55,164 bases of DNA from Candidatus Kerfeldbacteria bacterium (GCA_016182525.1 JACPGL010000028.1:1-55164), one strand, 5' to 3'. Shown: positions 2,499-44,218, counted from the first letter of the stretch. Translations and numbers: made by a program. Notes: a model not told the origin generated them from the letters alone.

Positions 2499-3682
2499 AA
2501 CAAAGCCCGCTGTCGGTGATCCACGAGTGGTTCACGTAGACTTATTTTTTTCATACTAAACTCGAATACCGGCCGAACAGTCTTTTCCTTTTGAATAAGG
2601 AATAAAAATTCTTTATTTCGTATATCCTGACCATTTCCTCCATTGAGCCACTGATTTGTCCATGTCATTGTGGCCATGACATTCTTTTTATAGTCCATCT
2701 CGATGATAGAACATTCCATTTTCAATTCTCGCAGTATTTCAATGATCGCATCAAAGGTTGCCCTCCCATTATTGTTATACGATAAAACAATATACTTTGC
2801 TTTTGTCTCTTCTATAAGTCTTTTTAGAGCATCAATAACAATATATCTGCCTTCGGCATTCTTTCTAAACTCTTCAAAGACTGACCCAGCGATAACGTCA
2901 CTCACATCTTCACGTCGATGAGCAGCTCCAACAACTTTTGGTTTGTCATTCAAACAAATCGTTTTCCAAATATGATAATACGAAGCATAACGGACGCGCG
3001 AAGGAGGCATGAGCTCATTTGAAGAGCCGTAAGGCGGATCGTAGTATGCCAAATCTACTTCGATATCATCGAGTAAATCAAAAATATCGTTATTGAAAAC
3101 GTGATGACTCTTATCATCAATGACCAACTTTGGCACCTCCATTTTCATTGTGTTGTACGCTCGTGGTGCCCATTGTTTAAGGTAAGAAACATGATGTCCT
3201 ACGGAATTATCTACCTTATCCATGGCAAGAATCAAACTCGTCAAAAGAACCGATTTTTCTATTGCATTCTTAGAAATTTTATCAATTTCCTCCCGTATAG
3301 CATCAAGTTTCATTGTGTTGTGGAGCTGCCACATTCTTTTTTTCCCATCGCTGTGTATTGCGCTCCCGCTATTTGGTTCCCCACCGTAGTACTTCGAAAA
3401 CCAACCAAATTTTCCAGGAAGTTCGTTTAATAGATCAATAGAGCGTTGATAATATGACGCTGGTTTTCGATTTAACAAATAACAATCACTAAAGACCTTT
3501 GACCAAATTGCTATGTCGTTTGCATAGACGGTATACCCTTCTTTTTTAAATGCTTGAGAAACTCGAGTCGTCCCAGAGAATCCATCAAAAATTGTGCGGA
3601 CATCTAATGGGCGCACAAACTCAAGTAAGACCGGGATGATCTCCCTTTTTGAACCTGTATATTTTATGCCTTCAGTTTCCAT
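2495..3682 (-). CDS. N6-adenine DNA methyltransferase, D12/Dam-like class (type II R-M methylase)
   Basis: 395-aa ORF with N-terminal YTGSKR, motif I FDGFSGTTRV, motif IV DPPY (AYYDPPYGSS); visibly AT-rich (about 33% GC in sampled lines). Confidence 0.85.
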   Translation of the reverse strand: METEGIKYTGSKREIIPVLLEFVRPLDVRTIFDGFSGTTRVSQAFKKEGYTVYANDIAIWSKVFSDCYLLNRKPASYYQRSIDLLNELPGKFGWFSKYYGGEPNSGSAIHSDGKKRMWQLHNTMKLDAIREEIDKISKNAIEKSVLLTSLILAMDKVDNSVGHHVSYLKQWAPRAYNTMKMEVPKLVIDDKSHHVFNNDIFDLLDDIEVDLAYYDPPYGSSNELMPPSRVRYASYYHIWKTICLNDKPKVVGAAHRREDVSDVIAGSVFEEFRKNAEGRYIVIDALKRLIEETKAKYIVLSYNNNGRATFDAIIEILRELKMECSIIEMDYKKNVMATMTWTNQWLNGGNGQDIRNKEFLFLIQKEKTVRPVFEFSMKKISLREPLVDHRQRALF

Positions 3683-6070: not shown

Positions 6071-6091
6071 ACATATAGAGGGTTGGAGTTA

Positions 6092-6254
6092 GACAGCGGA
6101 AAGGAAATCGCCCTTCTCGCGGCACCGGGTCGGTCGCCTCCTGCGGGCGACCGCCCTGCGCTCGGCTCGCCGCTCGGTCGCCTTTGGCGACCGAGACCAA
6201 GCCGGCGAGCCTGTGCAAGCAGCCGCTCCGAAGGTCAATTTCCTTTCCGCTGTC
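6092..6254. repeat. 163-bp GC-rich element with perfect 17-bp terminal inverted repeats (family A)
   Basis: GACAGCGGAAAGGAAAT (6092-6108) versus ATTTCCTTTCCGCTGTC (6238-6254); internal GGTCGCC-n-GGCGACC hairpins. Confidence 0.7.
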
Positions 6255-6297
6255 ACCCGTCATGATCTTCGCTCTTGAGATGGGATGCTCTCGCGAC

Positions 6298-6504
6298 ATC
6301 ACCCGCAAAGGATGCTGCGAAGGGATCCCGAGAGCAGCGAGCGGCCATGGTGTCCCGCACGAGATCCTTCGTCCGCCGTTGGCGGACTCAGGATGACAAA
6401 GGCCAGTCGACGGATGACAGTGCGGGACGAGCGAGCGCGAGGCAAAGTGCGGCCGGCTCGGAGGGCCGGCCGACACGGCCCGAAGCAGCACCTTTGCGGG
6501 TGAT
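6298..6504. repeat. 207-bp GC-rich element with 14-bp terminal inverted repeats (family B, copy 1) carrying a nested family-2 unit (6363-6397)
   Basis: ATCACCCGCAAAGG (6298-6311) versus CCTTTGCGGGTGAT (6491-6504); first about 35 nt and last about 60 nt closely match 32884..33032. Confidence 0.75.
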
Positions 6505-6522
6505 TTGAGCGATAAGGGACTT

Positions 6523-8403: not shown

Positions 8404-9000
8404 CTATTCCCCTGTTGCGCGCTTGGGCTCGATAATACGGTCGATCATGCCGTAGTTTTTTGCTTCTTCGGCATCCATAAAGAAGTCACGATCCGTGTCT
8501 TTTTGGATCTTTTCAAGTGGTTGGCCGGTATGGGTGACCAAGATACGGTTCAAGCGGTCGCGGATTTTCAGGATATGTTCCGCTTGGATTTTGATGTCCG
8601 TGGCTTGGCCTTGCGCGCCGCCCATGACTTGGTGAATCATGACCTCAGCATTCGGTAACGCGAATCGCTTGCCGTGCGCTCCGGCAGCCAAAAGTGTGGC
8701 GCCCATCGACGCGGCGATTCCAATGCAAATAGTCGACACATCGGCTTTCACGTACTGCATCGTGTCGTAAATCGCGAGTCCTGCCGTGACCGATCCGCCA
8801 GGCGTGTTGACATAGAGCTTAATATCTTGTTTGGAGTTCTGCGAATCCAAGAACAGCATTTGGGCAATGACGATGTTGGCGACCACATCATCAATCGGCT
8901 CGCCAAGAAAAATAATCCGCTCTTTCAAGAGCCGAGAGTAGATATCGTAGACGCGCTCACCGTAGGTTTCGCGCTCAATGACGGTTGGGATAAGGGGCAT
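8404..9000 (-). CDS. clpP: ATP-dependent Clp protease proteolytic subunit
   Basis: [33 protein letters not shown]..., catalytic-region GIAASMGA; ATG at 9000 preferred over the upstream TTG because a consensus promoter ends 6 nt before it. Confidence 0.95.
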
Positions 9001-12235: not shown

Positions 12236-12284
12236 CTCGCCATGCGAGTTGTCCTGAGCTGCCGAGAGGCAGCGAAGGACCTAG

Positions 12285-13555: not shown

Positions 13556-13623
13556 TCCCGGCGAGAAATCAAGACCGGCGTGAACACCTATTGTGCTCAG
13601 GCGTATGGTGAATAAACGGCTAT

Positions 13624-13796
13624 GTCATCCTGAATCCCGACGTGTCGGGATGAAGGATCTCGAATGTTCTGCGTGAATTTCGGCGTGAATACAGCATTGA
13701 GATCCTTCACTTCCCCTTCACTTCGTTCAGGGCTCGGCTCCCGCCTCGGTTCAGGACGACCCTGCGGGTCGGAGTCTTCGCTTCGCTCAGAATGAC
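13624..13796. repeat. 173-bp composite palindromic element (family-2 units) abutting the stop codon of the giant gene
   Basis: Ends GTCATCCTGA... and ...TCAGAATGAC are inverted; internal units GTCATCCTGAATCCCGACGTGTCGGGATGAAGGATC (13624-13659) and reverse-orientation copies. Confidence 0.7.
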
Positions 13797-13797
13797 A

Positions 13798-16700
13798 TTA
13801 CACTCTCACCTTCTGAGGCATGTCCCCTGGGGGTTGACGTATGTCGCGACGAAGGATGAGCAAAGCCACAAGGACGGTCAGAATGATAATCACACCCACG
13901 AGAACGACATACACAATGATGTTCACCGTTGTCAGTTCCTTCTCCACAACGATCTTGGCAATTTCAATCTGCTCGCTTGTGCGCCCTTCCTGATCGGAAA
14001 CTTCTGCAAATACGCGATGCTCTCCTGTGTCCAAAAGTTCAGTCGCGACGTGCACTTCCCATTTCCCGTTCTCATCGGCCTGCGTGGTAAAAACAAGCGG
14101 CTCACTAAAAATCGTAATTCGCACAAACGAAAGCGGCTGAGCAAACCCGGAAAGGATCAGTGTGTCTTCTTGGGTGCGAAGCTCAATCTTTGATTTGTTC
14201 GCCACGACGGTTTTCTCCTCAGGCGACCCAACCGTGACAAGCTTGAAGTCCTTCAGGAGTCCATCTGAAACCTCCTCCGGAGTTTTTGGTTCAATCGTGA
14301 TAATCACTTGATCCGAGGTGGTCACTTTGCCTTCGCCCGGCGTTGGCTGTTCAATAGGCGCTTCGGGAGGTGGGCCAACATATCCGAAATTCGCCGATTG
14401 GAAACTTTCGCTTTGATCAAGGATAATACGATGAATCGAAGGGTCAGAGGTTAAACGATTCCCTGCAGGAAGTGACGATTCCAACACGTGGACAAAGAGG
14501 ATACCTCTCCCGACTCCTTGAAACGTATAGGTTCCATTTGTCGAGGTGGTGGCAGAGGCAACAAGAGTATCCTGATCTGGCTCCAGACCGCTATTTGCGT
14601 TTGCATCGCGATACAGGCGTACGGTCACGCCATTCATCCCCGCTTCATTCGTATCCTGCGCTCCATTTTCATTTGCATCAGCCCACACGCGGCCGGAAAT
14701 CGATCCGCTGACAACGCGATTCTCCGTGGTGTTCGTGTGAATTCCGCTCTGATTCTCGGACCAGGCAATCAATGCATCGTTTGTGAGTGTTGCGGAAACG
14801 AGCGGTTCATCAACACGCGTCGTATACGTCATCTCTACACTTTCTCCAGCATCCACAAGACCCAACGAGAATCGCAGCGTGTTTCCTTCGCGCGTCAACA
14901 GATCTCCATCATTCGCATCGGTCACCGATGTGTTGCCAACAGTGATCGATCCTGCAACAAGCGACGTATGATCCGGAAACGTATCCCACACCACCGTGTT
15001 GGTCGCTGCAGCCGGCCCCTTGTTTTCAAACGCAACCCGATAGGTCAAGGTGTCATGCGGAGAAACGGCGACTCCATCATCGAGAAACGGCGACTCACCA
15101 ATCACGCGATGCGCTTGCGTAATCAAGAAAACCGAAATCAACACGACAACACAAATCTTTGCGGCAACAATGGTAATGGCAAGCCCGGCCGTTGCCCGTG
15201 AGAAGCGATGGTGATCGCGGTAGGTCGAGAATGAATACACCCATCGGCCATCGGCGTCACGCGGAGCGACAGCATCAAAGGAATCTGCAGCGGGTTTGGC
15301 AAGGAACAGCCAGACATGTCGCATCTCGTGCGCCACTCCATGAGCGAATTCCGACAGACGAGACACGCGGAATGGCTTGCGCTGCCGAAGCGCGCCAACC
15401 GCATACCCAAGAGTCAAAAGCAGCAGCGTCAAAATCGCATAGTTCACAATGGGATGATTCACCGTCTCAAGCACCTGCACAATCCACAGATGATCTTTGA
15501 CAATAAATACCCGGCCAAACACACTTGGAAACGCCGTATCCGTCACCAGCTCCTCTTCTTTTGCACTGGCAAATCGAACAAACCACGTGAGCCATGACGG
15601 AAGCGCATCACCATTCAAAAAACTCGATCGTGCAGACGTATTCACTCCAACGGTCTTCACGGCAACAATATCCGTGTTCAGGCTTGTATTAATAGAGAAC
15701 GTGATCGGAGTTGAAAAATCAGAAGAAGCCCCACGAGCATCAACCGTTTTGACGGCATAGGTCCAACTGGTCTGATTCGCAAGCGCGCTCGAAGGCTCAA
15801 CCGATGTTTCTCCAGCGCGGCTCGTGATTTCCTGGTCAAACGAATTCTGGATTTCTCCGTCATCGTCAAAGCGCACAACATACTGAAGGGTTGATGGTGT
15901 ATCACTTGGATCAGCATCGGACGCAGCGTCCCACGAAATAGTGGGCGTTTGCGACGCAAGCCGCATATCTGCCGATGGCACAAATCCTGCCGTTGGAGCA
16001 GACGGCGCTTCGTTTTCAAGATCAACGACAAGCGAATCGTAGGCAATCTCACCCACATTGCCGACGGCATCCTTTGCAAAATAGGCCGCATAATAGTTAC
16101 CGTCGTCGCGGGTTGTGATCTCCATGGAGGAACGGGCGGCGGTTGGCGTGCTTGTCTTGGTCGTAACAATATCAAGATACGTTGCAGCAACGCCGCTTGC
16201 GTTATCTGTTGCGCCAGAAACAGTGATCGTCTGATCCTCAAGATCCGTGACAGGATCCTCTGGTGTGTCGGATGTGTATCCGGTTGGATCGGTGTCATCG
16301 AGAACATACGAAAACGTGTAGGACTGGGTATTCTGCACATTGTCCGCAATCGTTACACGAATCGGCGAATCACTTCCGGTGCTTGATGCGTTCACGGTAT
16401 ACGTGCCGGAAACACTCGGAAGCGATGTGTCGTCAGAAGGAGATGTGGCAAGACTCGGCTCACTACTGAATGTGACCCCGAGCGCGCCCGACCCCGTATC
16501 TGACGCCGTGCCACTGAGCACCATGTTCACCGACGATGGCATGAGATGGGAGAAATAGAACGTCGTGTTCGAAGAATTGTACTGCGCATACGGCGAGTCT
16601 TCGGTCACGTCACGGCTCCCAATCTCGGGCTTGGCATTATCCCATCCCACATCTTGATCATTTTGCGCATTTAGATTCACCGTCGTGCCGTAGACATTCA

Positions 16701-18969
16701 CTGCTCCTGTCGCAACACTTGCAATGGTGAGATTGTCATACGTTGCAACCGACCCTGTTGCAGGATTTTGTTCAATCGAAAGCGTGGCTACACCACTTTG
16801 AAACGCGCCGCTTGTTCCAAAAAAGTCGGTGTCGCTCTCAGTGCCAATAACTGCTGTTTCACCAGAAAGCGCCGTGCCAGCATTTTCAAGACGCGCTGTC
16901 ACCGAAACCGTCATCGCATCGCCGCTCCCGCTATTGTCATCCCAATACCGGAGGCTCGAATCTTGATACACATGATTTGAAATCGCGATATCGGTGATCT
17001 GCACGCGATCAACCGTCACCGTGGTATTTGTCGAATCGAATGTCTGTGTTGAGCCGCCAAGAAGGGTGACGTTTGGACTATACGTAAATGCTCCAAGAGT
17101 CGATGGCGTCGAGACGGTGATGGTTCCGTCGTTGCCTGTTCCGGCCGTGACCGTTTCGTCCACGTCATCTGACGGGAGCGGATTGCCTGTTGGATCCCGC
17201 AACGCTTGAACGCTTGTTACTTCGCTATCCGGCGGCTGCAGACTCGACCCTGCATAGGTGATGTCATAGGTGATCGCGCCCGTGCTGATGTCTGGATTGA
17301 GTGTCGAGTCCGTGAATTGCCATACATCGAGGCCATTCCCTGAACTCGTGTTCACGGCCAGAGTTTTTTTGGTATCAAAATACGAGCTCGCGAGCGTGGT
17401 GTAGCCGGCCGTCGCACTCGCGGCATCGGTCACCTGCGCCTGGAGGCTGATATCATCTTGTTCAATGCCGCTCCATCCAAACGTCACGTTCCAGTTCACG
17501 GTCAGTTGATTCCCGCTCGTGGACGTACTGCCGCTACTGACGGTGAATGCTGTTGATCCACTCTCGCGACTGAACGAATTCGTGGAAGCGGTGTAGAGAA
17601 AGACCGTCGCGATTGATTGTGGGGGATCCGTTTGCGTCGTCTGCGTAAACCGCAAGCGGACGGTTGAGATGTTGCTTGTCCCATTCCCATCTGCAACAAC
17701 CGCGCGGAACGTGTACGTCCGCAATCCCGCGTACACGTTATCGGTATCATCAGGATTTGTGATCGAGGCGGAAACAAGCGTTGGAGCGATGTTCGTATTC
17801 GCAAGCCAAGAGATGCCTGTGCTGTGCGCGCCGATCGCATCAAAATCGCCATCTTCATCAAGATCGTCCATCTGCGCGCCGCTTGGCGTTGTTGGAGTTG
17901 CGATGGCATTCATGCCCCAATCATCATTCGTGGTGACCGACCCATCGTTTTCAAACCAGTCAATCCGATTCCCGGATTGCGATGACGCAATAAGATCCGT
18001 GTCTCCATCGCCATCAAAGTCACCTGCGTCAACGCCAACAGGAGCGGCGTATGAGCTCGCTGCCGTGTAGCCGGTCCAGTTTTCTGCAGAGATCGTTCCG
18101 TTATTTCGGTACCACTTCACTTGGTTGTCGGAGGTGTTGGCGGCCACGATATCGGTTCTGCCATCGCTATCCACATCGGCAACAATGATCTCGCTGACCC
18201 CATCGGCTGATGCGTCAAGCGTGTGGAGGGTGAATGTCGGATCAGCTGCGCCGTTGCTTGCATACACGTTGATCGCGTTGCCCACATTCGCGCCCGCAAT
18301 CACATCGCGGTCGCCGTCGCCGTCAAGATCCGACGCGAGAACATACGCAGCTCCGTCGATATTCGCGTCAATCGTATTCGTCGTCCACCCGCCGTTCCCC
18401 GGCGTGCCATCACTCTCATACCACACGAGATCATCGGCAATGGCTGCTGTCGCGAGCACATCGAGGTCGCCGTCGCCGTCAAGATCCGCGACATCCACTC
18501 CGTACGCACCATTGAACGAACTGCCGATGGTGTTTTTCGTCCAGCCGCCATCTTCGGGCGTGCCATCATTTTGCCACCACTCAATCGCATCCTCGGTAAA
18601 TCCTGCGCCGATAATATCTTGATCGCCATCCGCGTCAAGATCAGCAACGTCAACGATCCGAATATCATACGACGCCTGAACCGATCGCTCGGTAAACGAT
18701 TCGGATCCATTATTTTGAAACCACGAAATCTCATTATCGTCATCCGAACCTGAAGCAATATCTTTGCCTGTGCCGCCGTTCAGATCAACGACGATAAATT
18801 GCTTATTCCCTGCGAAACTCGTGGCGATATTTGCCGATGAGCTAAAGGTGATTGTAGCGCTCTGGACCATTCGAGGATCAAGAATCAACGCAAACGCAAG
18901 AAGTATGACAATTCCTGATACAAAAAATGAGCCCACTCCTTTACGATGAATTTTCCTGTGTCCTGTCAC
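13798..18969 (-). CDS. Giant (1723-aa) membrane-anchored surface protein: FG-GAP/VCBS beta-propeller, Ig-like repeats, DUF11-like and SdrD-B/Cna-B-like domains
   Basis: GTG start; N-terminal anchor GSFFVSGIVILLAFALIL; seven DxDxDGxxD...W(Y/F)xNxG repeats; DUF11-like LTYRVAFENKGPAAATN; B-type repeat GRVWADANENGAQD...NGTYTF; C-terminal TM VVLVGVIIILTVLVALLIL. Confidence 0.85.
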   Translation of the reverse strand: MTGHRKIHRKGVGSFFVSGIVILLAFALILDPRMVQSATITFSSSANIATSFAGNKQFIVVDLNGGTGKDIASGSDDDNEISWFQNNGSESFTERSVQASYDIRIVDVADLDADGDQDIIGAGFTEDAIEWWQNDGTPEDGGWTKNTIGSSFNGAYGVDVADLDGDGDLDVLATAAIADDLVWYESDGTPGNGGWTTNTIDANIDGAAYVLASDLDGDGDRDVIAGANVGNAINVYASNGAADPTFTLHTLDASADGVSEIIVADVDSDGRTDIVAANTSDNQVKWYRNNGTISAENWTGYTAASSYAAPVGVDAGDFDGDGDTDLIASSQSGNRIDWFENDGSVTTNDDWGMNAIATPTTPSGAQMDDLDEDGDFDAIGAHSTGISWLANTNIAPTLVSASITNPDDTDNVYAGLRTYTFRAVVADGNGTSNISTVRLRFTQTTQTDPPQSIATVFLYTASTNSFSRESGSTAFTVSSGSTSTSGNQLTVNWNVTFGWSGIEQDDISLQAQVTDAASATAGYTTLASSYFDTKKTLAVNTSSGNGLDVWQFTDSTLNPDISTGAITYDITYAGSSLQPPDSEVTSVQALRDPTGNPLPSDDVDETVTAGTGNDGTITVSTPSTLGAFTYSPNVTLLGGSTQTFDSTNTTVTVDRVQITDIAISNHVYQDSSLRYWDDNSGSGDAMTVSVTARLENAGTALSGETAVIGTESDTDFFGTSGAFQSGVATLSIEQNPATGSVATYDNLTIASVATGAVNVYGTTVNLNAQNDQDVGWDNAKPEIGSRDVTEDSPYAQYNSSNTTFYFSHLMPSSVNMVLSGTASDTGSGALGVTFSSEPSLATSPSDDTSLPSVSGTYTVNASSTGSDSPIRVTIADNVQNTQSYTFSYVLDDTDPTGYTSDTPEDPVTDLEDQTITVSGATDNASGVAATYLDIVTTKTSTPTAARSSMEITTRDDGNYYAAYFAKDAVGNVGEIAYDSLVVDLENEAPSAPTAGFVPSADMRLASQTPTISWDAASDADPSDTPSTLQYVVRFDDDGEIQNSFDQEITSRAGETSVEPSSALANQTSWTYAVKTVDARGASSDFSTPITFSINTSLNTDIVAVKTVGVNTSARSSFLNGDALPSWLTWFVRFASAKEEELVTDTAFPSVFGRVFIVKDHLWIVQVLETVNHPIVNYAILTLLLLTLGYAVGALRQRKPFRVSRLSEFAHGVAHEMRHVWLFLAKPAADSFDAVAPRDADGRWVYSFSTYRDHHRFSRATAGLAITIVAAKICVVVLISVFLITQAHRVIGESPFLDDGVAVSPHDTLTYRVAFENKGPAAATNTVVWDTFPDHTSLVAGSITVGNTSVTDANDGDLLTREGNTLRFSLGLVDAGESVEMTYTTRVDEPLVSATLTNDALIAWSENQSGIHTNTTENRVVSGSISGRVWADANENGAQDTNEAGMNGVTVRLYRDANANSGLEPDQDTLVASATTSTNGTYTFQGVGRGILFVHVLESSLPAGNRLTSDPSIHRIILDQSESFQSANFGYVGPPPEAPIEQPTPGEGKVTTSDQVIITIEPKTPEEVSDGLLKDFKLVTVGSPEEKTVVANKSKIELRTQEDTLILSGFAQPLSFVRITIFSEPLVFTTQADENGKWEVHVATELLDTGEHRVFAEVSDQEGRTSEQIEIAKIVVEKELTTVNIIVYVVLVGVIIILTVLVALLILRRDIRQPPGDMPQKVRV

Positions 18970-18995
18970 AAGATGGTGTGTTACGATATGAACAC

Positions 18996-19024
18996 ATTAT
19001 AGCATATTTTTCATCATAAATCAA
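18996..19024 (-). promoter_or_regulatory. Promoter of the giant surface-protein gene, TTGATT-17-TATAAT
   Basis: Minus strand gcgaTTGATTtatgatgaaaaatatgcTATAATgtg, 26 nt before the GTG start. Confidence 0.6.
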
Positions 19025-21433: not shown

Positions 21434-21626
21434 CTACTCCTCTAAAAGCTTTTCAACAGCTCGACGAAGAGATGGGAGATCCTCTTGAACGGTCTTCCAT
21501 ACCACCTCAAGATCCACACCAAAATACTCATGAGTCAAGATATTCCGCATTCCCACAATATCGTCCCACGGGATATTCTTCGCCTTCAAGGATATGACCG
21601 AGGTATACGCTAGGATCGATTTTCAT
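21434..21626 (-). pseudogene. hepT: Decayed HepT (HEPN/DUF86) toxin: internal deletion plus frameshift
   Basis: Frame 1 from ATG 21626 gives MKIDPSVYLGHILEGEE...; a second frame gives NIPWDDIVGMRNILTHEYFGVDLEVVWKTVQEDLPSLRRAVEKLLEE* with the RxxxxH HEPN motif. Only 64 codons of space versus about 110-140 expected. Confidence 0.7.
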
Positions 21627-21897
21627 AGAGTATCTTCTGATCCTTGAGGATTCGCTGTTTGATGCGTGGATGAAGAGACCGATATGTCACAAGATCAACG
21701 GGCTTCCTGACAAGGCGTTCAAGCTCACGTTGAAGATGAGCCACCTCGAGAAGGGTCGGAGTGATGGAGAATTCCACAAGGAGGTCAATATCACTGCGGG
21801 GAGTTTGCTCTCCTCGTGCAACCGATCCAAAAAGTGCGGCCTTTTTGACCCCACGTCGTTTAAGCAGAGAGATCATTTTTTTCGTTTGAGTTGTCAT
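21610..21897 (-). CDS. mntA: MntA-type minimal nucleotidyltransferase antitoxin
   Basis: 95-aa ORF, FGSVARGEQTPRSDIDLLVEF (GS...DxD NTase motif); 3' end overlaps the hepT remnant start by 17 nt. Confidence 0.85.
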   Translation of the reverse strand: MTTQTKKMISLLKRRGVKKAALFGSVARGEQTPRSDIDLLVEFSITPTLLEVAHLQRELERLVRKPVDLVTYRSLHPRIKQRILKDQKILYENRS

Positions 21898-21933
21898 AAA
21901 ACTATTGTATCAGGATTCATTACAAAATGAAAG

Positions 21934-21960
21934 GGAGAATTGACGGAGCGTCAAGAGTCG
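21934..21960 (+). repeat. 27-bp direct repeat, right copy; contains the -35 of the tsaD promoter
   Basis: GGAGAATTGACGGAGCGTCAAGAGTCG. Confidence 0.85.
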
Positions 21961-21968
21961 CGTATGCT
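21940..21968 (+). promoter_or_regulatory. tsaD promoter TTGACG-17-TATGCT, -10 ends 6 nt before the ATG
   Basis: aaTTGACGgagcgtcaagagtcgcgTATGCTgtcggcATG. Confidence 0.55.
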
Positions 21969-21974
21969 GTCGGC

Positions 21975-23045
21975 ATGATGATCCTCGGGATCGAAACGTC
22001 ATGCGATGAAACGTCGGCTGCCGTGTTGGAGGTGAAACGCGGACGGTTTGATTTGCGGTCACACGTTGTGGCCTCGCAAGTGGCGGTGCACACGAAAACC
22101 GGCGGTGTGGTGCCGGAGGTGGCGGCGCGCGAACACATGGTCACGATCCTGCCGACGATTCAGAAGGCGCTTGAGGGCGTAAAGCCGTCGTCGCTTGATG
22201 CGATTGGCGTGACGAGCGGGCCGGGGCTGCTCACCTCCCTGCTTGTTGGCGTCGAAACCGCAAAGGCACTTTCGTATGCATGGAGTGTGCCGCTCGTGCG
22301 CGTAAATCACATCGAAGGACACATTTACGCGAACTGGCTAGAGCCGACACTCGCAACGAGTGAGAACTCGTCATTGCGAGGAGGCGCGCAGCCGACGAAG
22401 CAATCTGACGCGAAGCGTCATCCTGAGCAATGTCAGGGTGAGCCTGTCGAACCCCTTGTCGAAGGATCTATACAGATCGCCACGTCGTCCCGACAAATGT
22501 CGGGACTCCTCGCGATGACGGATACGCAACTCTTCCCTCTCCTCATTCTTGTCGTCTCTGGCGGGCACACTGAACTCATTTTGATGAAAGGCCACGGACG
22601 ATACACAAAGATCGGCGGCACACAGGATGATGCAGCTGCGGTGCTTTATGAAACGCAAAGCCAGAGATCCTTCGACTCGCTTCGCTCGCTCAGGATGACA
22701 AACGCGCCCTTCAAGATGACAAAAGGGAGAGTCAACAACATTGCCGCGTCATTCCAACAAGCGGTGGTGGATGTGCTTGTTGAAAAGACGATACGGGCAG
22801 CAATAAAGCACAAAGTCAAAGGCGTGTTGCTCTCTGGCGGAGTTGCCGCGAACCGCCTCTTGCGAGAAACGCTTTCGGAACACGTCAAGAACGAACTCCC
22901 CGGCACATTCTACGCCCAACCGCGCCGCGAGTACTGCACCGACAACGCCGCAATGATCGCCGCAGCCGCCTATTTTCACGCTCGCAAAAAGGATTTCACG
23001 CCGTTTCGAAAACTTAAAGCCGACGCCAACTGGGAACTCGTCTAG
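21975..23045 (+). CDS. tsaD: tRNA N6-adenosine threonylcarbamoyltransferase TsaD, interrupted in-frame by repeat elements and lacking the central conserved segment
   Basis: MMILGIETSCDETSAAV, VVPEVAAREH, GPGLLTSLLVG, NHIEGH, VVSGGHTEL, GGVAANRLLR, CTDNAAMIA; the ORF is open throughout. Confidence 0.85.
   Translation: MMILGIETSCDETSAAVLEVKRGRFDLRSHVVASQVAVHTKTGGVVPEVAAREHMVTILPTIQKALEGVKPSSLDAIGVTSGPGLLTSLLVGVETAKALSYAWSVPLVRVNHIEGHIYANWLEPTLATSENSSLRGGAQPTKQSDAKRHPEQCQGEPVEPLVEGSIQIATSSRQMSGLLAMTDTQLFPLLILVVSGGHTELILMKGHGRYTKIGGTQDDAAAVLYETQSQRSFDSLRSLRMTNAPFKMTKGRVNNIAASFQQAVVDVLVEKTIRAAIKHKVKGVLLSGGVAANRLLRETLSEHVKNELPGTFYAQPRREYCTDNAAMIAAAAYFHARKKDFTPFRKLKADANWELV
22370..22519. mobile_element. 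150-bp MITE-like palindromic element inserted in-frame in tsaD
   Basis: Terminal inverted repeats GTCATTGCGAGG (22370-22381) and CCTCGCGATGAC (22508-22519), 11/12 complementary; length is exactly 50 codons; carries family-1 and family-2 modules. Confidence 0.6.
22666..22699. repeat. Half copy of the family-2 element inside tsaD
   Basis: GATCCTTCGACTCGCTTCGCTCGCTCAGGATGAC is the reverse complement of the GTCATCCTGAGC...GAAGGATC module. Confidence 0.7.
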
Positions 23046-23082: not shown

Positions 23083-23313
23083 TTATTTCTTCGCAAACTC
23101 CAAAAACTCCTCCACGGTGAGACCGGCCTGTCGAATAATTGCGCGAAGCGTTCCTTTTTTGATGTCGCGGGCGTGAATTGGGATAACTGGCTGATGCGAT
23201 GATCCGTCTTTGACCATGATGAGATGACTTCCGCGTTGCCGGTATTGTCGATAGCCCATCCGCTCAAAGGCGCGAACCACCTCGCGAGGTTTGAGTGACG
23301 GGAGCACCGGCAT
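23083..23313 (-). CDS. hicA: HicA-family mRNA interferase toxin
   Basis: 76-aa ORF, LKPREVVRAFERMGY...RGSHLIM...IPIHARDIKKGTLRAIIRQAG. Confidence 0.85.
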   Translation of the reverse strand: MPVLPSLKPREVVRAFERMGYRQYRQRGSHLIMVKDGSSHQPVIPIHARDIKKGTLRAIIRQAGLTVEEFLEFAKK

Positions 23314-23316
23314 ATC

Positions 23317-23574
23317 CTAAGCTGGGATCCGATCAAGATCAATCGAGATCTTTCCCTTAAAAAAGTTCGGTTCAATGTCTTCGGGAAACGGCAGCTTTCG
23401 CTCGGCAAGGGTTTCCAGTGTCAGTTCAATCGCCTCTCGCGCGTTCTTTTTTGCTTCTTCTACTGTTTCTCCTTGCGTGTGGCAACCGGGCAGTGCGGGA
23501 ACTTCAACACTAAATCCGCCGCTTTCGTCATCGGGTGTAAAAAGGACCGTATATTGGAGTATTTTGTGAGCCAT
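23317..23574 (-). CDS. hicB: HicB-family antitoxin (short form, no obvious DNA-binding domain)
   Basis: 85-aa ORF, YTVLFTPDDESGGFSVEVPALPGCHTQGETVEEAKKNAREAIEL. Confidence 0.8.
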   Translation of the reverse strand: MAHKILQYTVLFTPDDESGGFSVEVPALPGCHTQGETVEEAKKNAREAIELTLETLAERKLPFPEDIEPNFFKGKISIDLDRIPA

Positions 23575-25644: not shown

Positions 25645-26337
25645 ATGCTCACGATTGAAAAACACAAAAGTATTCTTATCCGGATTCTGAAGGACATCTA
25701 TACCGATAACACGCTCGGCCCTCTTTTAGGATTCAAAGGCGGAACCGCTGCGTTCTTATTCTACGATCTCCCGCGATTTTCGGTCGACCTTGATTTTGAT
25801 TTACTTGATGCGAGTACAGAGGACGAGGTTTTTGAAAAAGTTGGCACGATTCTTTCGGGATATGGAAAAGTCAAGGGGCAAAGAAAAAAATACTACACAT
25901 TATTTTTCGAACTTTCTTATGCCGACGCCGACCAGAACATTAAAGTCGAAATCAGCCGCCGCTCTTTTGAATCAAAATATGAGGTGGTGAACTACTTTGG
26001 TATTTCTATGAACGTGATGGTGAAAGAAGATATGTTTGCAAACAAAATCATGGCTCTCTACGAACGAATGGAACGAGCGAATCGAGACATTTTTGATGTG
26101 TGGTTTTTTCTCCAAAACAACTGGCCAATCAATGTAGAATTGGTTGAGAAGAGAATGGAGCTGCCTTTTCAGGAATTTCTTGCAAAGTGCATTCGAAAAT
26201 TGGAAAAAATCTCAAGCAGGAGTATTTTGGCCGGTATGGGTGAGTTGCTTGATGCCAAACAAAAGGCGTGGGCAAAGGCAAAATTAAAACAAGAGACGCT
26301 TTTTTTGCTCAAGGTGCTGCTTGATCAAAAAAAATAA
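25645..26337 (+). CDS. abiEii: AbiEii/AbiGii-family nucleotidyltransferase toxin
   Basis: 230-aa ORF, LGFKGGTAAFLFYDLPRFSVDLDFDL signature. Confidence 0.85.
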   Translation: MLTIEKHKSILIRILKDIYTDNTLGPLLGFKGGTAAFLFYDLPRFSVDLDFDLLDASTEDEVFEKVGTILSGYGKVKGQRKKYYTLFFELSYADADQNIKVEISRRSFESKYEVVNYFGISMNVMVKEDMFANKIMALYERMERANRDIFDVWFFLQNNWPINVELVEKRMELPFQEFLAKCIRKLEKISSRSILAGMGELLDAKQKAWAKAKLKQETLFLLKVLLDQKK

Positions 26338-26345
26338 TTCTCTCT

Positions 26346-29006
26346 ATGAACGACCTTCCAAAAGCATACGATCCGAAAAACGTCGAGGATGATATCTCAA
26401 GAGCATGGGAAGCATCTGGCTATTTCAACCCAGACACGTTACCCATTCCCAAAAATGCTGAAGCGTTTAGTATTGTACTCCCGCCGCCCACTGTCACCAG
26501 CACACTCCATCTTGGCCACGCGATGTATGTGATTGAAGACGTGATGATTCGCCACGCGCGGATGCAAGGGAAACGCACGCTCTGGCTCCCCGGAATGGAT
26601 CATGCCGCGATCGCCACGCAAAACAAAGTGGAAAGAATCGTATGGGATAAAGAGAAAAAAACGCGTCACGATCTTGGCCGCGAGGAACTTATACGGCGAA
26701 TTGATGCGTTCGTTGCCGACTCTCGCTCCACCATCACAAACCAACTTAAGAAAATGGGATTCTCGCTTGATTGGTCGCGCGAGCGCTTTACGCTCGACCC
26801 GGCGATCTCTCGCGCCGTGCAAAAAATGTTCGTGGACATGCACACAGATGGATTGATCTACCGCGGCTCGCGCATTGTGAACTGGTGCCCGCGCTGCCAA
26901 TCCACCTTGGCCGACGATGAAGTGGAATACAAAGAGGAGCGAACACCTTTCTATTATTTTAAGTACGGCCCGTTCTCTATTGCAACGGTGCGGCCCGAAA
27001 CGAAAATCGGCGACAAGGTGGTGATCGTGCACCCGAAAGACAAACGCTACACGAAATATCACGGCAAAACATTTCCATTGCCGTGGATTGATGGAGATAT
27101 TGAAGCGCGCGTGATCGCCGATGAAGCATCGGATCCTGAACTTGGCTCTGGCGCGATGACCATCACCCCTGCACACAGCTTTGTGGATTTTGAACTCGCA
27201 AAAAAATACGGCATCGAAATTGAAAACATCATTGGGCAAGATGGACGCCTCACAAACGCGGCTGGAAAATACGCCGGTCTCACGACGCAAGAGGCGAGAA
27301 AAAAGTTTGTTGAAATTCTCCAAAAAAAAGGCCTTGTCGAGAAAATTGACGAAAACTACACACACAATCTCACGGTCTGTTACCGCTGCGGCACGGCCGT
27401 TGAACCGCTTGTAAGCCCGCAGTGGTTTGTGGACGTGAACAAACCTGTCGTGACATGGAAGGGCGTAAAAAAAAGTCTGAAAGACGTGGCGATCGAGGTC
27501 GTGAAATCCGGCGACATCGAAATCATCCCTGACCGATTCGAAAAAACGTATTTTCAATGGATAGAGAATCTCCACGACTGGTGCATCTCGCGGCAGTTGT
27601 GGTATGGCCATCGTATCCCGGTGTGGTATTGCGTTGGCGACGAACATGAAGGCGCGGTGTGCAAACTGGAATGCCGGCAGCCGGTCGTGCAGACTGACCA
27701 TCCTATAGAATGCCGCTACTGCGGCTCAAAAAATCTTCGCCAAGATCCTGACACGCTCGACACGTGGTTCTCAAGCGGGATGTGGACGTTCACAACGCTC
27801 GGCTGGCCGGAGAAAACACGCGACCTGAAAACATTTCACCCGACAAACGTGCTCGAAACCGGCTACGACATTTTGTTCTTTTGGGTGGCGCGCATGATTC
27901 TCATGACAACGTATGCGACCGGCGAGGTTCCCTTCCGCACGGTGTACTTGCACGGGTTAGTGCGCGACAAGGAAGGCCGCAAGATGTCGAAGTCGCTCGG
28001 CAATATCATTGACCCGCTCGACATGTCGGCAAAGTACGGCACCGATGCGTTGCGGCTTGCGCTCATGACCGGAACGACTCCGGGGAATGACGTGAACTTG
28101 TACGAAGAAAAAATCGCCGGTTACCGAAATTTTGTGAATAAATTTTGGAACATCGCGCGGTTTATCCTGACCACTGTTGAGACACCACGCTACGTAGACA
28201 CCATGCCGACACTCGCGACAGATGCCGATCGTTGGATCATCTCGCGCCTGCACGAAACGACGAGAGGCGTGAACAAACTCATGGATAAATATCAGTATGG
28301 GTTGGCTATTGAAAAGCTCTATCGCTTCACGTGGAACGACTTGGCCGACTGGTACCTCGAAATCGCGAAAGTGGAACGCCCCGTCATTGCGAGCGAAGCG
28401 AAGCAATCCCCTCTCCTCCTCTTCATTCTCCAAAACCTCCTCAAACTCTGGCACCCGTACGCGCCGTTCATTACCGAGCATGTGTACCAAATGCTCAATG
28501 GGCATCCAAAAAATATGCTCATGATCGAAACATGGCCGAACGAGAAAACCACACAGACCACATTCGCGCATGAATCAGAGCGAGCAATCTTGGCCATGCA
28601 AGACATCGTGAATGCGATCCGCGAAAAACGGTCGTGGCTTGCCATCCCCTACACAACAACACTCGAACTCTCAGGCAAGATGGGAAAAGCAAAGGGGCTC
28701 GAACATCTCATCGAGCATTTCGGCAAGGTGAAGATGGTGAAGAAGCCACAAGGAAAAACGCTCGCGCTCACGAATGGCTTATCCCTTTCCGGATTTACTG
28801 GCGTAAACTTTGAAAAAGAACACGCCAAAACCAAAAAGGAACTCAAGAATCTCGAAGGTTATATCACTGGCCTCGCAAAAAAACTCGCGAACGAAAAATT
28901 CACCTCCAACGCCCCGAAAAACATCATCGAACAAGAACGCGCCAAACTCGAAGCTGCCACCGAACGCGTAAAAGACTTGAAAAATAAACTGAAGCAACTC
29001 ACGTAA
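26346..29006 (+). CDS. valS: Valine--tRNA ligase
   Basis: 886-aa ORF; HIGH-type PPPTVTSTLHLGHAM, KMSKS RKMSKSLGN, C-terminal coiled coil. Confidence 0.97.
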   Translation: MNDLPKAYDPKNVEDDISRAWEASGYFNPDTLPIPKNAEAFSIVLPPPTVTSTLHLGHAMYVIEDVMIRHARMQGKRTLWLPGMDHAAIATQNKVERIVWDKEKKTRHDLGREELIRRIDAFVADSRSTITNQLKKMGFSLDWSRERFTLDPAISRAVQKMFVDMHTDGLIYRGSRIVNWCPRCQSTLADDEVEYKEERTPFYYFKYGPFSIATVRPETKIGDKVVIVHPKDKRYTKYHGKTFPLPWIDGDIEARVIADEASDPELGSGAMTITPAHSFVDFELAKKYGIEIENIIGQDGRLTNAAGKYAGLTTQEARKKFVEILQKKGLVEKIDENYTHNLTVCYRCGTAVEPLVSPQWFVDVNKPVVTWKGVKKSLKDVAIEVVKSGDIEIIPDRFEKTYFQWIENLHDWCISRQLWYGHRIPVWYCVGDEHEGAVCKLECRQPVVQTDHPIECRYCGSKNLRQDPDTLDTWFSSGMWTFTTLGWPEKTRDLKTFHPTNVLETGYDILFFWVARMILMTTYATGEVPFRTVYLHGLVRDKEGRKMSKSLGNIIDPLDMSAKYGTDALRLALMTGTTPGNDVNLYEEKIAGYRNFVNKFWNIARFILTTVETPRYVDTMPTLATDADRWIISRLHETTRGVNKLMDKYQYGLAIEKLYRFTWNDLADWYLEIAKVERPVIASEAKQSPLLLFILQNLLKLWHPYAPFITEHVYQMLNGHPKNMLMIETWPNEKTTQTTFAHESERAILAMQDIVNAIREKRSWLAIPYTTTLELSGKMGKAKGLEHLIEHFGKVKMVKKPQGKTLALTNGLSLSGFTGVNFEKEHAKTKKELKNLEGYITGLAKKLANEKFTSNAPKNIIEQERAKLEAATERVKDLKNKLKQLT
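28383..28408. repeat. Family-1 repeat module inside valS, in-frame (translated VIASEAKQS)
   Basis: GTCATTGCGAGCGAAGCGAAGCAATC, same module as 29036, 22370 and 41540/41595. Confidence 0.7.
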
Positions 29007-29035
29007 CCATTCGAGGGCGAAGTTGCTCAAAATAG

Positions 29036-29067
29036 TCATTGCGAGGAACGAAGTGACGAAGCAATCT
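29036..29067. repeat. Family-1 repeat module 30 nt downstream of the valS stop
   Basis: GTCATTGCGAGGAACGAAGTGACGAAGCAATC. Confidence 0.7.
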
Positions 29068-34389: not shown

Positions 34390-34869
34390 ATGTCTGTCTC
34401 GATCACCCAATCTGCGAAGGAAACACAAAAACTCGCTGCGAAACTGGCACAAAACTGCCGCGGCGGGGAGGTGTTTTGCCTGTCGGGCGAGCTTGGCGCC
34501 GGAAAAACCACCTTTGTGCAAGGATTTGCAAAAGCCCTCGGGATCGCGGCTGCCATCACCAGCCCGACGTTTGTCTTGGAGAAAATCTACCCCATCCGCA
34601 CTCACTCTACGGTGACGCGGCTTGTGCATGTCGATGCCTACCGCATCGGCACCGACGCCACTCCGCCGCTCGACCTCACCGATCACCTCAATGACCCACA
34701 CACGATCGTTCTCATCGAATGGCCTGACCACCTCTCCTCCCTTCTCCAAAATGTTGAGTATAATAATGTAACTTTTCGGGTTGTTGATCCCGGTGAAAGA
34801 GAAATTGAGATAAAGGAATACTACGGACAGTGGCGGGTGGCAGCGGGAAAGCGGTCACACCGAGCGTAG
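34390..34869 (+). CDS. tsaE: tRNA t6A biosynthesis ATPase TsaE
   Basis: 159-aa ORF, Walker A GELGAGKTTFVQG, SPTF, HVDAYR; the C-terminal about 15 aa run into a GC-rich repeat. Confidence 0.85.
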   Translation: MSVSITQSAKETQKLAAKLAQNCRGGEVFCLSGELGAGKTTFVQGFAKALGIAAAITSPTFVLEKIYPIRTHSTVTRLVHVDAYRIGTDATPPLDLTDHLNDPHTIVLIEWPDHLSSLLQNVEYNNVTFRVVDPGEREIEIKEYYGQWRVAAGKRSHRA

Positions 34870-41443: not shown

Positions 41444-41539
41444 AATTTTTTGTATAAAGCAACAATCTTTTCAAAATGCTCTTCTGTATATTTTTGTGTA
41501 CATGTTTTGTAGAACTGCAACTTGAGTCTGTAGAAATTC

Positions 41540-41627
41540 GTCACTCGCGAGTCCCGAAGGGGCGAAGCAATCTATCGTTTCTCTAACAAACAAGAGATTG
41601 CTTCGTCGCTTCGCTCCTCGCAATGAC
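41540..41627. repeat. Complete 88-bp family-1 palindromic element (both arms)
   Basis: GTCACTCGCGAGTCCCGAAGGGGCGAAGCAATCT...AGATTGCTTCGTCGCTTCGCTCCTCGCAATGAC; flanks CTGTAGAAA/TTTCTACAG extend the palindrome. Confidence 0.75.
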
Positions 41628-41729
41628 AGAAAAAGTAAGTTTTTCTACAGTCTCAATTTCCTTTACTTTCTTTCCATCCATACATTCATACTATAGGAGA
41701 CGGCTATGAAAATCAAGCCCCGCCTTCTC

Positions 41730-43366: not shown

Positions 43367-44218
43367 ATGTTTCTACGCAAACACTTCTCACTCGACGATC
43401 GCATTCTTGCCCATCTCCAGCATGGGTCGATGATTATTCTCGATCTCATAGCCACGATCAAACGCGAGCGGCCAGGCACCACAAAACAGGGCGTATATGC
43501 TGCGCTTCGGATTTTAAAAAAAGAAGAGGTCGTTGTGCTTCATGCCGGACGTGCTTCGTTGAATGCCGCGTGGCTCACGAACGTCCATCGCTACTTCACC
43601 ATTGCCGAGCACTATTACTTTCAAAAAAATGTGGGCGCTGGACACTTTGCCAATTTGCGCGAGGGAGAAAAGATTCAATACACATTCACCAGTCCTCTCG
43701 TTGCGGACACGTTTTGGATTCATGCACTCTTTATTCTTATTGAGACCACGCCGCCCGGTGCACACTTCATTGCGTACGACCCGCACTGCTGGTTCTTTTT
43801 GGCACACGCGGAAAGTGAGCGTGGATTTGTTCGATTTGCTCGCGTGCACAAACGGCTGTACCTCGTGAGTGTCGGCGCTCGCACTCCTCTTGATCGCCTG
43901 GTCGCGCGCGAAGTAGATGGAACGCACAGTCAGTACGCAATGCTCACTCCTGCTCCCTTCCCTTCAACGCGATATATCAATATCATTGGAGACTATGTGA
44001 TTGACGTGTCACTTGAGAAACGGGTTGCCGATGCGATGGATGCGTTTTACACGCGGACGCGAGAATGGACGCCGGACGTGGGAAGAGCATTACGCCATCT
44101 TGTTGAAGAACGCGGACGAACAAAGCTTGTCATTTCGCGCAACGCCAAAAAAGCCGAGCAACTCCGCCGCAAATTCCTCAAATCTTTTTATATTCCAAAA
44201 GAGATCAACGTAAACTGA
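43367..44218 (+). CDS. wHTH protein, divergent TrmB-like paralogue
   Basis: 283-aa ORF; N-terminal wHTH-like ILDLIATIKRERPGTTKQGVYAALRILKKEEVV; C-terminal YINIIGDYVIDV parallels VDIFGDYVVTF in 46359..47111. Confidence 0.6.
   Translation: MFLRKHFSLDDRILAHLQHGSMIILDLIATIKRERPGTTKQGVYAALRILKKEEVVVLHAGRASLNAAWLTNVHRYFTIAEHYYFQKNVGAGHFANLREGEKIQYTFTSPLVADTFWIHALFILIETTPPGAHFIAYDPHCWFFLAHAESERGFVRFARVHKRLYLVSVGARTPLDRLVAREVDGTHSQYAMLTPAPFPSTRYINIIGDYVIDVSLEKRVADAMDAFYTRTREWTPDVGRALRHLVEERGRTKLVISRNAKKAEQLRRKFLKSFYIPKEINVN

Follow-up and report, generated by a model that had tools for sequence, protein, structure and literature searches.

Hairpin repeats resembling CGTC-tagged REP sequences make up an in-frame insert in a core-deleted tsaD gene of a Candidatus Kerfeldbacteria bacterium

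The gene tsaD encodes an enzyme of N6-threonylcarbamoyladenosine (t6A) synthesis, and the copy carried by a Candidatus Kerfeldbacteria contig (JACPGL010000028.1 of assembly GCA_016182525.1, analysed over its whole 55,164 nt and hereafter termed the window) raises the question of what a stretch of 150 bp bounded by inverted repeats is doing within its reading frame. An initial annotation of this DNA had proposed that a miniature inverted-repeat transposable element (MITE), or an element akin to repetitive extragenic palindromic (REP) sequences, had landed in a loop of an essential enzyme, there to be tolerated as extra peptide, removed at the RNA or protein level, or inactivating. A REP-like repeat lying in frame in a TsaD loop is indeed what we found; one MITE spanning the 150 bp between terminal inverted repeats is not. 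We consider it likely that the 150 bp are a mosaic of three REP hairpins of the CGTC class, the class of the Rickettsia palindromic elements (RPE) RPE-4 and RPE-6, which is read through as a loop of TsaD, and that a separate deletion inactivates this copy. The relevant features of the gene, with positions counted from the first nucleotide of the window, are the following:

21927-23045 (+ strand): tsaD open reading frame (ORF), 372 aa, matching Pfam PF00814 (E = 1.2e-61) in two stretches and TsaD chains of the PDB (E = 1.6e-50) in three.
22370-22405 (+ strand): REP module 1, GTC-ATTGC-GAG...GAA-GCAAT-C, GTCATTGCGAGG...GACGAAGCAATC, read as SLRGGAQPTKQS.
22417-22468 (+ strand): REP module 2, GTC-ATCCT-GAG...GA-AGGAT-C with a long inner part, GTCATCCTGAGC...GTCGAAGGATC, nested between modules 1 and 3.
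22475-22519 (- strand): REP module 3, GTC-ATCGC-GAG, then an inner hairpin TCCCGAC/GTCGGGA, then GCGAT-C; the reverse complement of GTCATCGCGAGG...GGCGATC.
22635-22638 (+ strand): deletion junction GCAGCT/GCGGTG, an in-frame loss of 162 nt (54 codons) with CTG microhomology, seen as a single 162-column gap against the related loci L001 and L002.
22666-22699 (- strand): REP module 4, of the module 2 type, reversed, in the tsaD loop after AVLYE and 150 nt downstream, read as RSFDSLRSLRMT.

In the database version of the gene, translation starts at the second ATG (21975), giving a product of 356 aa. What had originally been described from the sequence was in large part borne out. The 12-mer GTCATTGCGAGG at 22370-22381 is matched by its reverse complement in 11 of 12 positions at 22508-22519, and a repeat search extended the arms to 20 nt with 85 % complementarity (22369-22388 and 22501-22520). 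The 150 nt amount to 50 codons that are open only in the tsaD frame; they translate into the peptide first quoted and lie, as stated, between the HIEGH and VVSGGHTE motifs. When one mismatch is allowed, GTCATTGCGAGG occurs six times in the window, compared with a mean of 0.35 in shuffled sequences (0 of 100 shuffles reached six), and a 158-nt stretch folds more stably than its shuffles, with z = -4.2 as DNA and z = -7.2 as RNA. Between the aligned parts flanking the insert there are ~64 residues in the window protein, versus 6 in Thermotoga TsaD and 7 in the closest insert-free relative (protein P0003, locus L001). Alignment with the empty-site relative confirmed that this is in-frame extra DNA, but placed its limits elsewhere, the extent being ~56 codons that start ~21 nt upstream of 22370.

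The idea of a single 150-bp unit did not hold. The stretch is a composite of three separate hairpin modules of 36-52 nt, and its apparent terminal inverted repeats are the tagged ends of two independent hairpins with a third module between them: modules 1 and 3 form a pair with tags outside (HH), inside which module 2 is nested. A covariance model was trained on 47 modules from other loci and then run on the window, where it recovered all four tsaD modules: module 1 at 22368-22408 (38.9 bits, E = 1.5e-7; head and tail cognate), module 2 at 22415-22471 (E = 8.4e-4), module 3, which provides the closing stem of the predicted fold, at 22472-22521 (E = 1.1e-3), and module 4 at 22663-22701 (35.3 bits, E = 1.2e-6). 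All four start with GTC, preceded by C at 22369, 22416 and 22520 (reverse) and by T at 22700 (reverse). The stems of the window copies (ATTGC/GCAAT, ATCCT/AGGAT and ATCGC/GCGAT) have complementary A-T at positions 1-2, and their tails read CTG, CTA, CTC, CCC or CTT. The whole 150-bp unit has no second copy in the window, where its sub-modules alone recur, and the figure of exactly 50 codons is an outcome of selection on the reading frame, not a property of the repeat.

The general design of the modules was derived from 2.3 Mb of sequence: besides the window itself, 120 IMG/VR contigs were included, together with 82 TsaD loci taken from genomes or SRA assemblies. A GTCAT head was followed by its cognate complementary stem plus ATC in 40 of 178 instances, against 3.4 expected, and the head-by-tail table was diagonal over nine stem variants, which amounts to covariation of the 5-bp stem. 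As the broader search pattern imposed AT, the independent evidence for an AT start comes from the window copies and this covariation only; the inner helix, which was not imposed by the search, was 69 % paired, with GC, CG, AU and UA alternating. The cognate head/tail test and the covariance model replaced a looser rule (GTCAT plus any 5-bp stem), which had returned 15 matches versus 7.3 in shuffles. In 90 % of 392 modules a pyrimidine precedes GTC (C 39 %, T 51 %), and the tail has the form C-Y-M, that is C, then C/T (89 %), then A/C (81 %), a CCA tail being common only among short-loop types. A module opens with an unpaired Y-GTC tag and an AT-initial stem, continues with an internal loop of GAG/GAA purines and an inner hairpin that varies, and closes with the complementary stem followed by a C-Y-M tail. 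Neighbouring modules (n = 90 pairs) are arranged with tags outside in 62 cases, tags inside in 13 and in tandem in 15, the spacer having a mode of 22-24 nt and frequently reading cag...ctg; neither at the 62 tags-outside dimers nor at the tsaD cluster did we find a target-site duplication or flanking direct repeat. Modules lie within long ORFs in 32-40 % of cases compared with 76-89 % for random sites, and about one third are in frame inside genes.

Further loci of this set deserve mention. At apparently matching sites just upstream of tsaD, L023 (9840-9865) and L042 (9894-9919) carry modules that differ by a compensatory stem change, ATTCT/AGAAT versus ATCCT/AGGAT. In L049, a 200-bp unit is present 2.5 times at 97 % identity (18496-19000). 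In every unit two different REP types are paired tags outside across a conserved 35-nt spacer, an arrangement suggestive of a REP dimer amplified in tandem together with its flank. Finally, within an ORF of L020 (7517-9220), an in-frame tags-outside REP dimer (8893-8985) separates the radical-SAM domain from the GNAT domain; the Elp3-like product is another tRNA-modification enzyme with these repeats.

The design corresponds in most features to a superfamily of CGTC-tagged REPs (Di Nocera, De Gregorio and Rocco, 2013, BMC Genomics 14:522; PMC3733652). According to that study, its members have a CGTC or TGTC tag (with CCTC variants), A-T-initial stems and a 3-nt tail with the consensus CCA; stems of 8-9 bp and loops of 4-5 nt are given for four families, HH dimers dominate, tags-inside and tandem pairs are rare, and spacer ends are often complementary (PMC3733652). 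The same study describes these REPs as lacking an associated transposase and as mostly intergenic, with a minority in frame in housekeeping genes (among them tRNA ribosyltransferase-isomerase, TruB, GlyRS and IleRS), where clusters can encode 43-82 aa and peptides such as VIPAKAGI, SFPRKRES, DSRFRGND and ...AGMT are read, and it counts R. conorii RPE-4 and RPE-6 and Neisseria dRS3 among the members (PMC3733652). The window modules share the tag, the A-T-initial stem, the predominance of HH dimers and often complementary spacer ends; they too are mostly intergenic and sometimes in frame in genes, and no transposase was found between inverted modules in the 2.3 Mb or among the annotated ORFs of the window. 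Moreover, classic copies with an 8-bp stem and a 5-nt loop are present in related loci, e.g. GTCATTCCGCGCTTGACGCGGAATCCA in L034. The window types are arguably a structural variant of CGTC-tagged REPs, a likeness judged on described features. Tails, although likewise short at 3 nt, differ in being mostly CTC, CCC or CTA and rarely CCA, and the host phylum, Patescibacteria, is absent from those named in PMC3733652.

Other repeat systems fit less well. RPE-1 of Rickettsia comprises palindromic repeats of ~150 bp that lie in frame in unrelated housekeeping genes; they are translated and deemed consistent with how the host protein folds and works (Ogata et al., 2000, via PMC10969869 and PMC3733652). 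Whilst RPE-1 is a unit repeat with a conserved peptide, the tsaD insert is an ad hoc grouping of three short modules that is not repeated as a 150-bp unit. REP doublets forming hairpins (REPINs) and bacterial interspersed mosaic elements (BIMEs) are GTAG-tagged REP doublets moved by REP-associated tyrosine transposases (RAYTs), and GTAG REPs are seldom conserved across phyla. The modules resemble them as short hairpins with a conserved unpaired tag, in inverted doublets with a short spacer and in mosaics; however, the tag here is (C/T)GTC, no RAYT or Y1 transposase lies between flanking modules in the 2.3 Mb, and a 32-nt module of the window is found unchanged on Methylosinus plasmids (see below). 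Literature searches with literal sequences and peptides retrieved nothing relevant, and neither did the combination of "Patescibacteria" and "REP".

The history of the insert was read from the closest homologues, P0003 (L001) and P0002 (L002), which stem from independent SRA assemblies and whose tsaD DNA is 76-79 % identical. The gene order tsaD, ribBA, valS is common to L002 and the window. L001 has neither of the tsaD inserts, its loop 1 being the one of 7 residues noted above, whereas L002 has module clusters at exactly the same two tsaD sites. One of the L002 modules (1825-1863) is still strong (E = 2.8e-6) and the others are degenerate, including the one at the module 4 site, where L001 has none. 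The outer modules of the L002 cluster are as in the window; the middle module has the opposite orientation, and the outer ends span 121 nt versus 150. A third shared site lies in valS, with a single module in the window versus a tags-outside (HH) dimer, 54 nt longer, in L002. Insert DNA is 66 % identical between the window and L002, with many indels, compared with 78-79 % for the gene. By comparison of the window with L001 and L002 the landing sites are old or recurrent, their content turning over and only an in-frame total length being kept; as judged from these alignments, the tsaD cluster appears to predate the split from L002 and to have turned over since.

The same comparison bears on the fate of the insert. 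P0002 shows no deviation and no gap at conserved columns, and AlphaFold gave it a confident TsaD fold (predicted template modelling score 0.85), with low confidence in the inserts only (predicted local distance difference test, pLDDT, < 50 at residues 147-186). In the window protein (P0001), pLDDT is < 50 at residues 127-172 and the remainder is confidently folded, so that structure prediction with the insert, as had been suggested at the outset, yields a low-confidence loop in both models. In the window protein Pfam finds no domains other than those of TsaD type, the 50-aa insert having no recognisable domain. L002 keeps clusters at the same sites in a fully conserved TsaD, which is the strongest sign that such inserts can be accommodated as loops, and L001 lacks both; disordered extra peptide that the enzyme tolerates is therefore the most likely state of the insert. 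Of the three outcomes first considered, tolerance as extra peptide fits best; removal lacks an intron or intein signal, and inactivation by the insert is not what the data favour.

Extended loops are not peculiar to this gene. Among 120 Patescibacteria TsaDs, loop 1 is extended in 22 and loop 2 in 19, and recognisable REP read-through peptides (e.g. VIASEAKQS...IAASS...PRND) occur in at least 13 extended loops of 12 proteins; for the TsaD loop of L011 the REP-type peptide was confirmed at the DNA level. Loops 1 and 2 of P0036, P0050, P0051, P0052, P0007 and P0044 contain a different family of low-complexity inserts, with peptides such as KSQIPNPKQIQNSK and PISNIQ, which suggests a second kind of repeat read-through.

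The initial premise of an intact essential tsaD fails for this copy, in which 54 conserved core codons are missing. Near 22637 DDAA is fused directly to AVLYE, and the segment lost (GEAFDKVAKLLGLGYPGGP...FPRPM...FDFSFSGLKT) includes GEAFDK, GYPGGP, PRPM and FSFSGLKT, among the most conserved parts of the family. The alignment with PDB chains falls into three pieces, query residues 242-266 standing opposite residues 168-227 of Thermotoga TsaD. In this protein alone, 12 columns that are ≥ 90 % conserved in the 120 homologues are absent and the flanking motifs replaced. The lost motifs presumably contribute to substrate binding in the Kae1/TsaD fold. The HxxxH, SGGHT, GGVxxN and DNAAM motifs are retained, and outside the deletion zone no lineage-specific deviation is seen at conserved columns of P0001. 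No second tsaD and no relocated 54-aa segment was found in the window. This tsaD copy is probably inactive, on account of the core deletion and not of the insert. The gene for the TsaD partner in t6A synthesis, tsaE (34390-34866, + strand), looks intact (PF02367, E = 7e-32; Walker A GELGAGKTT), which is at odds with a long-dead tsaD. As neither tsaE nor the rest of tsaD shows decay, the deletion is most likely either a recent mutation that inactivates the gene or part of a defective variant that entered the assembly. Its origin by recombination between modules was considered and rejected: the breakpoint does not fall within the repeats, and the two CAGGATGA motifs close by are still in place.

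Taken together, we envisage that the repeats spread as non-coding, selfish, REP-like DNA, and that copies would persist in genes only where a tolerant surface loop is hit and the frame is kept. The insert would be transcribed and translated, so that ~50 additional residues, mostly disordered, would separate the helix of HxxxH from the strand of VSGGHT, and a separate in-frame deletion of 162 nt of the conserved core, of microhomology type, would render the product inactive.

Among the alternatives, an assembly artefact, i.e. a chimeric or collapsed join via the repeats that produced the insert, the deletion or both, appears unlikely. Repeats are present and the contig is metagenomic; the allele is known from one contig only, with no exact match of the gene elsewhere and none for the 372-aa product in an exact-protein look-up. 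A scan of Joint Genome Institute (JGI) metagenomes with a clade-specific tsaD 23-mer likewise gave four loci, none of them close (the best 55 % identical in amino acids to P0003 and 40 % to the window protein). However, both tsaD sites and the valS site are occupied by clusters in L002 as well, an independent sample from another SRA run, the reading frame is intact throughout, and the deletion is a clean loss at a 3-nt microhomology with its junction outside the repeats. Clean microhomology deletions are not a typical assembler product.

That one MITE of 150 bp, with terminal inverted repeats of 12-20 bp, was cut and pasted by a DDE transposase seems improbable to us. Elements of the MITE class are recognised by defined terminal inverted repeats, by duplication of the target site and by a unit length. 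Like the bacterial MITEs Correia/NEMIS, ERIC and Nezha, the modules are small, non-coding, structured and at times intragenic, and the inverted termini, the length of 150 bp and the strong folding would suit such an element, as would the similar size of the Rickettsia RPE-1 elements (PMC10969869). Nevertheless, the termini are tagged ends of modules that are found singly elsewhere (one of 26 nt in valS), a third independent module occupies the interior, and lengths vary continuously. L002, moreover, has the same outer modules around a different, inverted middle one at a different overall length, no direct repeat flanks the element, and the whole unit has no second copy in the window.

We would also give little weight to the view that repeat-derived loops have been co-opted in Patescibacteria, where selection would maintain them as a new TsaD surface contacting partners or tRNA. 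It would account for the extension of the same two loops in many Patescibacteria TsaDs (22 and 19 of 120) and for the perfect stems of the window modules despite ~22 % divergence of the gene from L002. Against this, inserts are unrelated between lineages, of low complexity and predicted to be disordered, those of the window and L002 have diverged further than the gene around them, and the closest relative has no insert. Post-transcriptional or post-translational removal, in the manner of a mini-intron or intein and leaving a normal mature loop, is very improbable indeed: the strong predicted RNA structure would bring both ends together, but Rfam searches at permissive and gathering thresholds returned no family for the insert or its vicinity, group I and II introns included, 50 aa without splice-junction residues is far below the size of inteins, which are much longer and carry such residues, and homologous TsaD inserts vary freely in sequence and length yet are always in frame, as expected of translated and not of spliced DNA.

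Several observations weigh against the reading of the insert as a translated mosaic of CGTC-class REPs in a gene later inactivated. Structurally, the window types depart from the published CGTC REPs: their outer stem has 5 bp, an internal loop of GAG/GAA follows, and the inner hairpin is variable, with a total of 26-52 nt. No transposase or other mobilising function was found: in the 2.3 Mb no Y1, RAYT or other transposase lies between inverted modules, the intervening genes encoding phage or unknown proteins only, and the annotated ORFs of the window include no transposase; that the modules are mobile is thus something we infer. One ancient insertion is too simple an account, as the window stems are perfect while the L002 modules are degenerate and the middle module is inverted; either gene conversion or re-insertion at a hotspot has to be invoked as well. 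Furthermore, the existence of the deletion in the organism itself would rest on the one contig carrying the allele, and the insert is presumed to be translated.

Beyond tsaD, the window contains other copies of the modules. The covariance model gave nine matches at E ≤ 1.1e-3 in the 55 kb, four in tsaD, one in valS and four intergenic (6360, 13622, 29033 and 41593). The recurrence that had been claimed for the modules was confirmed at 6363-6397 (-), 13624-13659 (+), 22666-22699 (-), 28383-28408 (+), 29035-29066 (+) and 41596-41627 (-). Two copies reported earlier fared worse: that at 12251 is a degenerate regular-expression match (12248-12281) negative with the model, and that at 41540 is a degenerate module (41538-41575, E = 0.09). 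The copies outside tsaD are:

6360-6399 (- strand): intergenic REP module in the ymdB-rny spacer, model E = 6.4e-5.
13622-13798 (both strands): intergenic cluster of REP modules, 13622-13662 (+, E = 8.5e-4), 13698-13762 (-, E = 1.8) and 13769-13798 (-, E = 0.14).
28383-28408 (+ strand): single 26-nt REP module in frame in valS, whose product has ValRS domains, read as VIASEAKQS; model match 28381-28411, E = 1.5e-7.
29035-29066 (+ strand): intergenic REP module directly downstream of the valS stop codon, model E = 4.5e-7.
41538-41629 (both strands): intergenic tags-outside REP dimer with a 23-nt spacer, its left module degenerate; 41538-41575 (+, E = 0.09) and 41593-41629 (-, E = 2e-8).

The ymdB-rny spacer (6071-6522) is unusually long (452 nt) and GC-rich, and contains several degenerate REP-like hairpins beside the clear module; Rfam identified no family in it. 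As for the choice of target, the conserved D-D-A codons of tsaD (GAT GAC GCN, the reverse complement of a CGTCATC head) were entertained as an insertion nucleus, which is speculation only: the window has GATGAT at this place, and modules of the strict pattern are not enriched in tsaD (2 of ~30 across 80 genome loci).

The window is rich in toxin-antitoxin genes. Directly upstream lies an MNT/HepT pair (21434-21589 and 21610-21897, both on the - strand), of which the HepT ORF has 50 aa and covers profile positions 76-120 of 120, the toxin apparently being truncated at its N terminus. A HicA/HicB pair (23083-23574, - strand) separates tsaD from ribBA; in L002 the same slot holds an unrelated ORF of 253 aa without Pfam match (2774-3535) and is thus variable. 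With two AbiEii-type toxin genes (25645-26334, +; 44208-44906, -), this amounts to a high density of toxin-antitoxin genes in 55 kb.

The modules are also widely distributed. The 32-nt module of the window, GTCATTGCGAGGAGCGAAGCGACGAAGCAATC, is 100 % identical on plasmids of Methylosinus trichosporium OB3b (NZ_CP023738.1, 100184-100215; NZ_CP119870.1, 96936-96967), and copies of 91-97 % identity occur on replicons of Methylocystis, Halomonas, Calothrix and Aulosira; the module is also present in uncultured phage records. For a REP, conservation of this kind between phyla is out of the ordinary. Genomes of Dehalococcoidia and Patescibacteria likewise contain near-identical copies. The type-A pattern was detected in at least 120 IMG/VR contigs, compared with a few expected by chance on a rough estimate. 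In view of this identity across phyla, and because the tsaD and valS sites have seen modules gained, lost or inverted after the window and L002 lineages parted, it is conceivable, if still tentative, that the hairpins represent a pan-bacterial, still active element, CGTC-type REPs being moved by horizontal spread, perhaps by phages, or by a universal host function.

These results add Patescibacteria, with their tiny genomes, to Rickettsia and the few other bacteria in which REP- or RPE-type repeats are known to insert in frame. They carry two cautions for annotation: "hypothetical" peptides such as VIASEAKQS, SLRG..., ...LAMT and ...RND represent repeat read-through, and this tsaD, with its intact ORF and deleted core, should not count as evidence of a working t6A pathway. 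The identity of modules across phyla sharpens the question of what moves CGTC-type REPs and, if such a pan-bacterial active element exists, the TsaD loops of Patescibacteria, being struck time and again, would offer a natural setting in which to look for the mobilising machinery and its target rule. Unexplained inserts are common in conserved proteins of Patescibacteria, and some of them may now be read as translated selfish hairpins.

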